Source: a virus. From it: a stretch of DNA of 25,477 nt. How positions within the stretch are numbered: position 1 is the first letter of the stretch; every line of letters begins with the position of its first letter. A program made the translations under genes and the position numbers. The notes under the pieces were generated by a model, which did no database searches, was not told where the DNA came from, and was given only the letters and a program-made list of their open reading frames with translations. Shown piece after piece: positions 22,231 through 25,477 of the stretch. The stretch lies in the UHGV virus genome UHGV-2038699; one strand, given 5' to 3'.

Positions 22231-22252
22231 AAATTACCTTTAAGGATTTCAC

Positions 22253-22471
22253 ATGAGTGATGAATACAAACAGAAAATCGGCATTCCAGATGACCATACA
22301 CTGGAGCTTGTCTCTTCTAACTGGAAAGGAGCTCGAAAAGGTCAGGATACCGATGAATACCTTTACCGTGAGTTGGACGCTGCGGGAAATGTAGTGGCCA
22401 CTTATGAAATTAAAGATTCAACTTCTATATATCCACCATTCGGAAGATCTATCTCTTATAAGAAGGTCTAA
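22253..22471 (+). CDS. Hypothetical 72-aa protein, opposite strand to the late operon
   Basis: ATG with AAGGA RBS 7 nt upstream; start is only 22 bp from the divergent small-terminase start; hydrophilic, slightly acidic; no family recognised. Confidence 0.45.
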   Translation: MSDEYKQKIGIPDDHTLELVSSNWKGARKGQDTDEYLYRELDAAGNVVATYEIKDSTSIYPPFGRSISYKKV

Positions 22472-22962
22472 GCAACCAACTGACCAGCATGGCATTTCCG
22501 ATTGAACATTTACACGTCCAGGATAATGCCATGTCTATTCCACAGTTCTATCGTCACCTACCGATATTGGCGTGAACTACACGCACTTGACATCAGCAGG
22601 AGCGAAGTACGCCCCCTCCCGTCTAGGTCGCCAGCGGCACAAAGCCATTAACCAGCTCAGGCTGACGTCGTGGCATCTTGCCCGTTTACTCGCCGCCGTC
22701 GTTCGTATTCAGTTTGATGATGTAGATGTCGGACATTGAGAGCCTCTTTATCCGCTTGTGGGGATATCAGTTAAGTTATCCCGTGTAGGGTATAAGCCAT
22801 TGTCGAGACCACTCATTGAATGGCCTCTGCAATAACCGATGTCTTTCCATCAGTCCGCCACCACAAAGAATCTTTTTTGCCATCAGGCAGGAGGTTCATC
22901 TTTCAGTGGCTGCCAGTGTTATTTCCCCACTTACTGGCTTGGGTTGCTTCGCGGTACTGCCG

Positions 22963-23499
22963 TTAATTAGTGAGCCCGGGGATTACGGTTTGCCCGTGCT
23001 GTTCAAGGCGTTCAATTCTCGCCAGTAGCTGAGGCTTCTTAATTTTTCCCCAGCGATTGAGCAGGCGGCCAGACATACTGGCGACATCCTTCTCTTTCAT
23101 ATACTCCAGCATTATGGCGTTGCGTTCTGCTTCATAACTTTCGCTGTACTTACGGAGTTCTGCTGACATCCAGTTAAAGGCATTTATATAGGCCTCTTTA
23201 ACAGCGTCGGCTTTTGCGCCATTAAATCCCATGACCAGCATAACGAAGCCACTAAAGTCCATGCGGTAGTAAATCTGTTTCTTGTCGAAAATCCCTAACT
23301 CATTGATTTTTTCGGCAACGCAAAAATGCGCTCTCCGGAAATCTTCAGAGCAATGACAATTTTTCAGCGCCCTCAATACGTCCGCATGACGCTTACCAAA
23401 TGCCTTTGCGATCTGGAAGGTGTCAGTTACCGGTTGACCTTCTGCTGCGGTAACTAACTGGCGAAAGTCAAAGTCATGATTCACAATTAATTCATTCAT
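22963..23499 (-). CDS. Rha-family phage regulatory protein
   Basis: N-terminal motif ...TDTFQIAKAFGKRHADVLRAL typical of the Rha domain; ATG at 23499 chosen (track ORF extends to 23568). Confidence 0.6.
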   Translation of the reverse strand: MNELIVNHDFDFRQLVTAAEGQPVTDTFQIAKAFGKRHADVLRALKNCHCSEDFRRAHFCVAEKINELGIFDKKQIYYRMDFSGFVMLVMGFNGAKADAVKEAYINAFNWMSAELRKYSESYEAERNAIMLEYMKEKDVASMSGRLLNRWGKIKKPQLLARIERLEQHGQTVIPGLTN

Positions 23500-23650
23500 G
23501 GCGTTACCTGCTACTTCGAAATGAACCTTTGCCGCACAGGAAACCAGCCCACCGAGGCTCGCCAGCACTAACTGGTATCCTCAAAGGCCCATTCCAAAGG
23601 GTCAGGTTCGGTGGTTATTGTGCGCTGCGGTGCGCGGTGAAATACCTATA

Positions 23651-24155: not shown

Positions 24156-24628
24156 ACCTCAATCTCTCTGACCGTTCCGCCTGCTTCTTTGAATTTTGCA
24201 ATCAGGCTGTCAGCCTTATGCTCGAACTGACCATAACCAGCCCCCGGAAGTGAAGCCCAGATATTACTGCAACGGTCGATTGCCTGACGGATATCACCGC
24301 GATCAATCATCGGCAAAGCGCCACGCTCCTTAATCTGCTGCAGCGCAACAGCGTCCTGGCTTTTGGGAGAGAAGTCTTTCAGGCCAAGCTGCTTACGATA
24401 GGCATCCCACCAACGGGAAAGAAGCTGGTAACGTCCGGCTGCTGTTGATTTGAGTTTGGGGTTTAGCGTGACAAGTTTGCGAGGGTGATCTGAGTAATCA
24501 GTGAATAGCTCTCCGCCAACAATGACGTCATAACCATGATTTCTGGTTTTCTGACGTCCGTTATCAGTTCCCTCTGACCACGCCAGCATATCGAGGAACG
24601 CCTTACGTTGATTATTGATTTCCACCAT
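24152..24628 (-). CDS. R: Endolysin (lambda R-type lytic transglycosylase)
   Basis: 158 aa; [26 protein letters not shown]... is nearly the lambda R sequence as I recall it. Confidence 0.9.
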
Positions 24629-24935
24629 CTTCTACTCCGGCTTTTTTAGCAGCGAAGCGTTTGATAAGCGAACCAATCGAGTCAGTACCGATGTAGCCGA
24701 TGAACACGCTCGTTATATAAGCGAGATTGCTACTTAGTCCGGCGAAGTCGAGAAGGTCACGAATGAACCAGGCGATAATGGCGCACATCGTTGCGTCGAT
24801 TACTGTTTTTGTAAACGCACCGCCATTATATCTGCCGCGAAGGTACGCCATTGCAAACGCAAGGATTGCCCCGATGCCTTGTTCCTTTGCCGCGAGAATG
24901 GCGGCTAACAGGTCATGTTTTTCTGGCATCTTCAT
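24612..24935 (-). CDS. S: Class I holin (lambda S-type) with dual-start MKM motif
   Basis: 107 aa, three TM segments, begins [22 protein letters not shown] (lambda S107/S105 dual start); GGGGG RBS. Confidence 0.9.
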
Positions 24936-25177
24936 GTCTTACCCCCAATAAGGGGATTTGCTCTATTTAATTAGGAATAAGGTCGATTACTGATAGAACA
25001 AATCCAGGCTACTGTGTTTAGTAATCAGATTTGTTCGTGACCGATATGCACGGGCAAAACGGCAGGAGGTTGTTAGCGCGACCTCCTGTCACCCGCTTTC
25101 ACGAAGATCATGTGTAGAAGGCCGCAGCATAACTATCACTGATGAATTCAGGATAGCCAGTGGATACGGCTCAGTTA

Positions 25178-25253
25178 TGGTGCTGGTTAACGGACTTGAA
25201 CCGCTACCCATTCGCTTACAAGGCGACTGCTCTACCATTGGAGCTAAACCAGC
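25178..25253 (-). tRNA. tRNA gene, anticodon UGU (Thr) by manual folding
   Basis: 76 nt with encoded CCA; 7-bp perfect acceptor stem, D-loop with GG, T-loop TTCAAGT, anticodon loop CTTGTAA. Confidence 0.6.
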
Positions 25254-25258
25254 ATGTT

Positions 25259-25333
25259 TGGCGGGACAGCGTGGGCTCGAACCACGATAAGAAGGTTAAC
25301 AGCCTTCCGTAATGACCTTTATACGACTGACCC
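25259..25333 (-). tRNA. tRNA-like gene, anticodon GUU (Asn) by manual folding; possibly degenerate
   Basis: 75 nt with CCA; T-arm CGTGG-TTCGAGC-CCACG; anticodon arm GAAGG-CTGTTAA-CCTTC; one mismatch each in acceptor and D stems. Confidence 0.45.
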
Positions 25334-25379
25334 AAATAAAAAAAGCCACCGTTGCAACTTAAGAGTCACTAACGGCAGC
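25334..25379 (-). terminator. Intrinsic terminator (tR'-like) immediately downstream of the candidate late promoter
   Basis: On the minus transcript: GCUGCCGUU...AACGGUGGC stem followed by U7 (plus-strand A-run 25338-25344). Confidence 0.5.
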
Positions 25380-25389
25380 TTACCTTCTA

Positions 25390-25419
25390 ATTATGGCTAA
25401 ATGGATAATTGCATGTCAA
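25390..25419 (-). promoter_or_regulatory. Sigma70-type promoter (candidate late promoter pR'), -35 TTGACA / 18-nt spacer / -10 CATAAT
   Basis: On the minus strand, TTGACA (25419-25414) and CATAAT (25395-25390); sits upstream of the tRNAs and lysis genes, where lambdoid phages carry pR'. Confidence 0.5.
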
Positions 25420-25477
25420 GGCTTTTAACAGCAACATGCTTAACTTTCTCAACACGTTTACGCATTTTGAAAGCATT

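Follow-up and report, generated by a model that had tools for sequence, protein, structure and literature searches.

The late-operon leader of the virus genome UHGV-2038699 carries a tRNA-Asn(GUU) gene followed by a tRNA-Thr(UGU) gene. In the reading that we favor, with moderate confidence, the two form a functional cassette of the phage 21/Sf6 type in the 5' leader, expressed in dependence on the late antiterminator Q, whose main benefit is the provision of nuclease-resistant tRNAs and whose secondary benefit is codon supply; resistance has been published for the tRNA-Thr and would extend to the tRNA-Asn. The stretch of DNA that was analysed, referred to as the window, comprises 25,477 nucleotides. 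As a genome feature the cassette is ordinary and already known. What changes relative to the original prediction is that the tRNA-Asn is not the weak member of the pair, that the cassette is a substitution module, and that the mismatch in the tRNA-Thr corresponds to a published resistance feature. The tRNA-Thr half of the counter-defence reading is likewise in the literature. The one new lead, we infer, concerns the tRNA-Asn: this so far unexplained partner matches the second shared target of the Toprim anti-phage tRNases.

The tRNA genes and the late leader

In the 25.5-kb window, ARAGORN at default settings calls two tRNA genes and no more. Both lie on the minus strand, which also encodes the holin and the late genes. 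The tRNA-Asn(GUU) gene (positions 25259-25333, 75 nt) has the anticodon stem GAAGG/CCUUC, the tRNA-Thr(UGU) gene (25178-25253, 76 nt) has GUCGC/GCGAA, and each includes an encoded CCA. On the same strand, a spacer of 5 nt (25254-25258) lies between them, which reads AACAU in the RNA and AAUAU in other copies of the cassette. The Rfam model RF00005, with a gathering score of 29, returns 61.5 bits (E = 2.8e-11) for the tRNA-Thr and 53.0 bits (E = 5.9e-9) for the tRNA-Asn. Both genes are bona fide cloverleaf tRNAs and members of RF00005. The original prediction had proposed two CCA-encoding cloverleaves 5 nt apart on the late-gene strand, with these same two identities; ARAGORN, Rfam and direct reading of the sequence agree with it, and both genes are called at the ARAGORN default and well above the Rfam threshold.

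The two stem mismatches that had been noted in the tRNA-Asn are real: the acceptor stem contains U4.U69 and the D stem U13.U22. In the tRNA-Thr a single mismatch, G27.A43, occupies the top of the anticodon stem. C9 and the 4-nt variable loop of the tRNA-Asn fall within the normal tRNA range. In both molecules U8, A14, G18G19, the T-loop UUCRA (UUCGA in the tRNA-Asn), U33, the purine at position 37 (A37 in the tRNA-Asn) and the 3' CCA are intact. The identity elements of Escherichia coli AsnRS are G34, U35, U36 and G73, and those of ThrRS are G1-C72, C2-G71, G35 and U36. Both window tRNAs carry the nucleotides recognised by these enzymes, with a GUU anticodon and discriminator G73 in the tRNA-Asn, and G1-C72, C2-G71, a UGU anticodon and discriminator A73 in the tRNA-Thr.

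Upstream of the tRNAs, the window ends within the late antiterminator gene Q, of which the last 26 codons are present (25397-25477, minus strand; stop codon 25397-25399; translation ending ...VKSLDMQLSI*). The DNA of this gene end is nearly the same as that of Sf6 gene 59, which carries the annotation 'similar to phage 21 Q', and the window Q can be classed as an Sf6/ST64T-type relative of phage 21 Q. The late promoter pR' (25390-25419, minus strand; TTGACA-18-CATAAT) overlaps the end of Q, agrees with the consensus at 11 of 12 positions and coincides with the promoter annotated in Sf6. It is the sole sigma-70-like site found by a consensus scan of positions 24900-25477, and the scan revealed no separate tRNA promoter between pR' and the holin gene S. 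The late leader terminator tR' (25338-25381, minus strand), which is overlapped by the qut region, consists of a hairpin (25343-25381) and a run of seven U (25338-25344). Its fold of -20.2 kcal/mol (z = -3.5) was equalled in stability by 0 of 200 shuffles. The tR' sequence is identical in phage 21, Sf6, JLK-2012 and ST64T, and is annotated as such in Sf6; at the same place, the phage 21 record has a 50-nt 'aRNA' that abuts the 5' end of the tRNA-Asn called by ARAGORN. Only 4 nt separate the U-run from position +1 of the tRNA-Asn.

Downstream, 241 nt of leader (24936-25176, minus strand) extend from the 3' end of the tRNA-Thr to the S start codon. This stretch had been suspected to be the lambda S leader, and 232 of its 241 nt are indeed identical to lambda 44945-45185. 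Within it lies a conserved hairpin with UUUU after it (25063-25088), which we considered as a terminator and rejected: the fold of a 71-nt region around it is not significant relative to shuffled sequences (z = -1.6), and a terminator scan did not flag it. The holin/antiholin gene S (24612-24935, minus strand), with its dual start MKM... and a match to PF05106 Phage_holin_3_1 (E = 2.4e-30), is the first protein-coding gene past the tRNAs and aligns with lambda S and with Sf6 genes 60/61. It is followed by R, Rz, a rha gene, terminase and portal, and the rest of the window is a late region of the SEN34/Omnitron myovirus type. The position had also been described as one where some lambdoid phages carry tRNAs, which is the case in Sf6, phage 21, SfI and 933W.

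This anatomy is the basis of the mechanism that we propose. Because the tRNAs lie 4 nt past the tR' U-run and no other promoter-like site precedes S, their synthesis is expected to depend on Q, so that their transcription would occur exclusively, or for the most part, when RNA polymerase passes tR' with the help of Q. Host RNase P and 3'-end trimming enzymes would excise them from the late transcript, the encoded CCA would make CCA addition after trimming unnecessary, and host synthetases would charge both tRNAs. Their supply would thereby coincide with the burst of late-protein synthesis, and on hosts that deploy tRNases the phage would profit while its late proteins are being translated. Added decoding capacity, for the rare ACA codon as well as for structural proteins rich in Thr and Asn, would be a secondary and compatible benefit.

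Target motifs of anti-phage tRNases

The case for a defence-related function starts from P2-OLD, which kills via cleavage of tRNA-ThrU at a paired CNG motif (Govande et al., NAR 2025, PMC12445682). According to the same study, phage tRNA-Thr(UGU) genes rescue cells poisoned by P2-OLD, and tRNA-Thr21 of phage 21, tested as plasmid-expressed or in-vitro-transcribed tRNA, resists cleavage and rescues toxicity, the rescue being dependent on decoding of ACA. Two features in combination were held responsible for its resistance, the change C28U/G42A in the CNG motif and a shorter anticodon stem (PMC12445682). The window tRNA-Thr is exactly identical in sequence to this tRNA (phage 21 record AJ237660) and shares its UGU anticodon, CNG loss and 27:43 mismatch; the assays used plasmid or in-vitro-transcribed tRNA, whereas the window copy sits in its native late leader. 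The anticodon arm of host thrU reads ACUGA/UCAGU, with CUG/CAG as the paired motif and UAAUC|A further along the arm. In the window tRNA-Thr, positions 28-30 are UCG and positions 40-42 are CGA, neither of which is CNG, and 27:43 is G.A. These features correspond to the C28U/G42A change and the shorter anticodon stem of tRNA-Thr21. Since the window gene has the tRNA-Thr21 sequence, G27.A43 included, the apparent cloverleaf defect would be a functional feature, and we read the mismatch as the published P2-OLD-resistance feature rather than as damage.

A second nuclease brings in the tRNA-Asn. AriB of the PARIS system cuts at 40|41, adjoining U36-A-A-U39; a U39A change abolishes its cleavage of tRNA-Lys, and distal contacts matter too (PMC12409363). 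Its prime target is tRNA-Lys(UUU), host tRNA-Asn(GUU) is a secondary one, and the Lys, Thr and Asn tRNAs of phage T5 together neutralise PARIS (PMC12409363). The anticodon arm of host asnT, GCGGA/UCCGU, carries both a paired CNG motif (CGG/CCG) and UAAUC|C. The window tRNA-Asn has no CNG on either strand, and C39 replaces U39 of the UAAU motif that is conserved in AriB targets. At the AriB site, the window tRNAs thus read U36-A-A-G39-C40|G41 (Thr) and U36-A-A-C39-C40|U41 (Asn), compared to UAAUC|A and UAAUC|C in the host.

That both window tRNAs are devoid of the motifs used by P2-OLD and AriB suggests a counter-defence pair. As the host targets include Thr and Asn, and the motifs are absent from the window copies, the cassette matches the two non-Lys targets common to Toprim tRNases, and the window tRNA-Asn would be a second nuclease-resistant replacement tRNA. 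The argument for the tRNA-Asn is qualitative and has a weak base rate, because foreign tRNAs lack short motifs by default, and the strength with which P2-OLD cuts host tRNA-Asn is not stated in the text of PMC12445682. Moreover, the cassette has no tRNA-Lys(UUU), the prime AriB target, and therefore cannot alone defeat PARIS B185.

We extend this reading, tentatively and with less than even confidence, to the recurrent pairing of Asn(GUU) with Thr(UGU) in temperate enterobacterial phages (lambdoids and P1), which might represent a dedicated two-tRNA counter-defence cassette, both members being nuclease-resistant stand-ins for the host tRNAs that, besides Lys, are depleted by Toprim tRNases. 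If so, the tRNA-Asn would be accounted for, the position after tR' would make the supply coincide with late translation, and read-through might protect lysogens.

A functional parallel to such a pair, the Lys/Thr/Asn set of T5 (PMC12409363), has the same UGU and GUU anticodons and a nucleotide other than U at position 39 beside the AriB cut, and its copies also have weakened anticodon stems. T5 differs in being virulent, in encoding more than 20 tRNAs, among them the essential tRNA-Lys(UUU), and in expressing them early from promoters of their own, whereas the window has no Lys gene and a Q-controlled terminator upstream; the tRNA sequences are not closely related. Regarding timing, Q-dependent late expression may come too late if Gam triggers P2-OLD early.

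The tandem in phage P1 has the same anticodons in the same Asn-Thr order with a 2-nt spacer, but it belongs to the ban operon, which is under the control of the repressor C1, while the window cassette is located in a late leader. The P1 tRNA-Thr is approximately 80% identical to that of the window, with compensatory changes on both sides of the pairs 28:42 and 29:41, whereas the P1 tRNA-Asn shares only about half of its positions with the window tRNA-Asn. The lambdoid JLK-2012 offers a further parallel, as its cassette is linked to tciA/tciB, as in P1. Not every Asn-Thr tandem fits the counter-defence model: the P1 tRNA-Thr keeps CUG/CAG and a full stem of 5 bp, and the P1 tRNA-Asn keeps UAAUC|A.

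Possible roles in codon supply and in lysogens

The tRNAs could instead serve purely for codon or amino-acid supply, covering the rare ACA codon and Asn codons in the late burst with no link to defence, an explanation that we consider unlikely. We compared the 28 late genes of the window with a 42-gene sample from K-12. ACA occurs 10.4 times per 1000 codons in the late genes vs 5.4 in the sample (p = 0.016) and makes up 14.9% vs 10.2% of Thr codons. Thr and Asn residues are both about 30% commoner in the late genes, at 69.6 vs 53.2 per 1000 for Thr and 47.9 vs 37.7 for Asn. Published observations point the same way: the SfI genome paper gives ACA as 17.3% vs 7.1% in the host, the phage L paper reports that AAC accounts for 24 of the 25 Asn codons of the capsid gene, and the tRNAs that phage 933W carries at the same position (Ile, Arg and Arg) are rare-codon tRNAs. 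The 933W genes, ileZ-argN-argO, occupy the same niche between Q, pR' and terminator on one side and downstream late genes on the other; they differ from the window pair in their identities, in having a putative promoter, pT, annotated for them, and in being followed by stx2 rather than directly by a holin gene.

Several observations argue against codon supply as a sufficient explanation. ACA ranks only sixth in enrichment, and the five codons above it, AGG, AGA, AUA, GGA and CGA, have no carried tRNA. AAC and AAU are not rare, the AAC fraction is lower in the late genes than in the host sample, and the SfI authors, who arrived at a similar assessment for their phage, saw no Asn bias. Hence, of the codon-usage pattern that had been proposed as a check on the pair, the Thr part held in the form of a modest ACA enrichment, while no favorable Asn codon bias was found. 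One and the same cassette also accompanies unrelated virion modules, namely those of P22-like podoviruses, an HK97-like siphovirus, SfI-type phages and the SEN34/Omnitron-type myovirus of the window, and so it is not tunable to one gene set. Finally, codon supply leaves unexplained the weakened anticodon stem of the tRNA-Thr, whose G27.A43 mismatch is present in 105 of 105 Thr21-type copies. As the ACA signal is modest and Asn codons show no bias, we rejected codon compensation as the main driver and retained it as a secondary rival to nuclease resistance.

It is improbable that the benefit falls mainly to lysogens. In such a scenario, read-through of tR' from a constitutive pR' would give tRNA precursors ending at the leader hairpin before S, and the resistant Asn and Thr tRNAs would counter tRNase toxins such as colicins, CDI toxins or a co-resident P2 old. 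The near-consensus pR' fits this scenario, as do the position of the conserved hairpin and UUUU between the tRNAs and S and a passage of PMC7547250 according to which pR' in lambdoid prophages is constantly active, with termination a short way downstream. Against it stand the strength of tR' as a terminator and the results for the S-leader hairpin given above, which do not mark it as a terminator. The Stx pR' paper makes no mention of tRNAs.

Conservation, junctions and spread of the cassette

The tRNA-Asn is identical in phage 21, Sf6, HK446, JLK-2012 and ST64T, and the window copy differs from these in a single T-loop base, C59, a minority variant found in 10 of 129 database copies. These copies were retrieved with an exact 33-nt tRNA-Asn pattern, and conservation within that 33-nt stretch is therefore by construction; over the entire gene, 102 of the 129 are identical, which left too little variation for a compensatory-change test. 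Of the 117 IMG/VR copies whose flanks are complete, more than 94% keep the mismatches U4.U69 and U13.U22. No part of the cassette is more conserved than the tRNA-Asn. The suggestion that it might be a pseudogene or a tRNA-derived remnant does not agree with its score of 53 bits, its intact invariant nucleotides and its near-invariance across phages.

Variation and decay, where they are seen in some phage lineages, affect the second gene instead. In ST64T and L it has a 4-nt deletion that leaves a 6-nt anticodon loop, and ARAGORN makes no call at default settings; the phage L paper reads this type of gene as Leu(UAA). In JLK-2012-type cassettes the second gene is a chimera, with a 5' third from the phage and a remainder resembling host thrU, and with two broken anticodon-stem pairs it falls below the ARAGORN default threshold. 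Among the 105 Thr21-type copies, G5-C68 is replaced by U5-A68 in five and A49-U65 by G-C in one; most other stem changes produce G-U, and three single copies break a pair.

These data bear on the notion that one or both genes are non-functional relics, either pseudogenes or mosaic filler between the terminator and the S leader, which we regard as very unlikely. The one or two stem mismatches per gene, the deteriorated second genes of ST64T/L and JLK-2012, and the fact that lambda manages without tRNAs and has an unrelated 163-nt segment in their place would all be compatible with relics. Functional genes are favored by Rfam scores far over the threshold, by tertiary-interaction and synthetase-identity nucleotides that are all intact, by substitutions among copies that are compensatory or preserve wobble pairs, by the near-invariance of the tRNA-Asn across divergent phages, and by the activity in vivo of the identical Thr sequence, whose rescue requires ACA decoding (PMC12445682). 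We give hardly any credence to the notion that the tRNA structures serve mainly as processing or stability signals of the late mRNA, where RNase P/E cleavage would remove the qut/tR' leader and set the 5' end of the lysis mRNA, or are remnants of a tRNA-linked integration site: a location in the 5' leader, with the terminator immediately before and the S leader immediately after, would suit a signal, but the late genes of lambda and P22 are expressed without these tRNAs, complete genes with anticodons, identity elements and encoded CCA would be superfluous for such a role, and the neighbors are Q and lysis genes with no integrase or att context.

The relation to lambda is best seen in HK446, which has the lambda-type Q, pR', tR' and S leader, and yet has the same two tRNAs, which its record leaves unannotated. 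HK446 and lambda are identical through the T-run of tR'; then approximately 159 nt in HK446 stand opposite an unrelated 163 nt in lambda (44782-44944), and identity returns 1 nt past the CCA of the tRNA-Thr and continues to S. The cassette had been thought to be an insertion, but in HK446 it takes the place of the lambda segment rather than being added, and for this reason it is a substitution module, whose junctions, at the tR' T-run on one side and the S leader on the other, are fixed. The junction ...TTTTTTATTT|GGGTCAG is common to nearly all of the 117 full-flank IMG/VR copies. In the same set, the terminator before the cassette is of the 21/Sf6 type in 96 copies and of the lambda type in 20, and the module thus occurs behind several types of Q and terminator. 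We also considered whether the 163-nt lambda segment is a decayed tRNA pair and rejected this, as nothing resembling a tRNA was detected in it by ARAGORN or by an Rfam search with a permissive cutoff (E up to 10).

Phage 21 and Sf6 both have the order Q, pR', qut/tR', tRNA-Asn, 5 nt, tRNA-Thr, and in Sf6 a lambda-type S comes next, as in the window. The window differs from both in its late genes, which are of the SEN34/Omnitron myovirus type, while phage 21 has its own virion genes and those of Sf6 are P22-like; in addition, the window variant of Q and the promoter is of the Sf6/ST64T type and not exactly that of phage 21. The Sf6 record AF547987 annotates the entire series of gene 59 (Q-like), pR', qut, tR', tRNA-Asn, tRNA-Thr and S107/S105, with the note 'similar to phage 21'. 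Over 156 nt the window pair is 99.4% identical to phage 21 AJ237660, the T-loop base of the tRNA-Asn being the difference. The phage 21 tRNA genes have been known since 1991, going by the citation of Guo, Kainz & Roberts 1991 in PMC3636060, and the announcement of the phage 21 genome (PMC9119081) counts two tRNA genes. In SfI, too, the tandem follows Q according to the genome paper of that phage, which also names Sf6, ST64T, PS3 and phage 21, with reference to Guo, Kainz & Roberts 1991 as cited there, as having one or both genes.

The tRNA pair is annotated in many P22-like phages. A 578-nt region matches 184 phage records, many of which annotate tRNA-Thr and tRNA-Asn, including Sf6, SPN9CC, BTP1, Oslo and Kapi1. 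A 211-nt core is present in 369 of 5426 complete E. coli genomes, in which both tRNAs are annotated by RefSeq. An exact-match scan of 185,579 species genomes yielded five loci, in Escherichia sp., E. albertii, Shimwellia and two gut MAG contigs labelled Segatella and Collinsella, the latter two of which are probably mis-binned.

Divergent forms of the Thr-position gene

The second gene of the cassette, which occupies the Thr position, occurs in two divergent forms. In lambdoid phage JLK-2012 (1501-1576 of L005), and in about 11 copies from IMG/VR, it is a chimera whose positions 1-26 are those of the phage Thr gene, while the remainder resembles the host gene thrU. Positions 39-43 of the chimera read UCAUC instead of the UCAGU of host thrU, which breaks pairs 27:43 and 28:42 as well as the 3' CNG motif, part of the paired anticodon-stem motif at which P2-OLD cleaves tRNA-ThrU; the gene is not called by ARAGORN at default settings. 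One IMG/VR copy retains the unaltered thrU arm. Govande et al. (PMC12445682) linked a stem-weakening change to P2-OLD resistance, and the chimera looks like the product of recombination with host thrU followed by stem weakening of this kind.

The other form is characteristic of ST64T/L/PS3-type cassettes; its anticodon arm has lost 4 nt by deletion and its loop is 6 nt long, as seen in ST64T (about 1201-1272 of L006). ARAGORN calls this gene only at a relaxed threshold and without a definite anticodon, and in the phage L paper tRNAscan names it Leu(UAA). This form of the gene is probably either decayed or atypical.

Cassette boundary and tRNA-Asn allele

A near-constant motif, TTTTTTATTT/GGGTCAG, marks the cassette's left junction, both in the window (25334-25344) and in almost all cassette copies. 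It is independent of the preceding terminator hairpin, be this of the 21/Sf6 type, the lambda type or a third, rarer type, and the T-run of the terminator may be the recombination boundary of the cassette module. Lambda-type Q, pR' and tR' accompany the cassette in phage HK446 (L003, JQ086372), where ARAGORN calls both tRNA genes (1479-1634), although neither is annotated in the GenBank or RefSeq records.

At position 59 of tRNA-Asn, in the T loop, the window carries C (25275), whereas phages 21, Sf6 and HK446 and most other copies carry T; C is a minority allele (10 of 129 copies). Short contigs assigned to Segatella copri and Collinsella MAGs (L014 and L017) also match the enterobacterial phage tRNA-Asn exactly; these contigs are probably mis-binned fragments of Escherichia prophages.

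The S leader and the Rha-family gene

A conserved, GC-rich 8-bp hairpin, CAGGAGGU...ACCUCCUG, lies on the minus strand at 25063-25088, in the lambda-type S leader with the tRNAs on one side and S on the other, and is followed by the U-run CCGUUUUGCC (25056-25059, minus strand). The 71-nt fold that includes it falls short of significance (z = -1.6). Downstream of its pR', lambda carries terminators in tandem; if the hairpin is one of these, read-through of tR' could supply the tRNAs without lysis-gene expression.

A Rha-family regulatory gene (22963-23568, minus strand; Pfam Phage_pRha and ORF11CD3) separates the lysis cassette from the gene for the small terminase. In the neighboring 22231-22962 (about 730 nt), any ORF on the minus strand is shorter than 60 aa.

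P1-type relatives

Phage P1 (1501-1654 of L004) carries tRNA-Asn and then tRNA-Thr, in the same order as the window and 2 nt apart, within the C1-controlled ban operon, with tciA/B/C and tRNA-Ile after them. The order in JLK-2012 is Q, Asn, Thr, Gly, tciA, tciB (662-1656), which suggests a tRNA and tci module common to P1-like and lambdoid phages.

In the 107-kb element CMS-2020a (L008, about 2001-2170), a P1-type tRNA-Thr is preceded by another putative tRNA that, as read by eye, has a long variable arm and the anticodon GUA (Tyr), replacing Asn. The retron-Eco7 nuclease PtuAB has Tyr(GUA) as its target.
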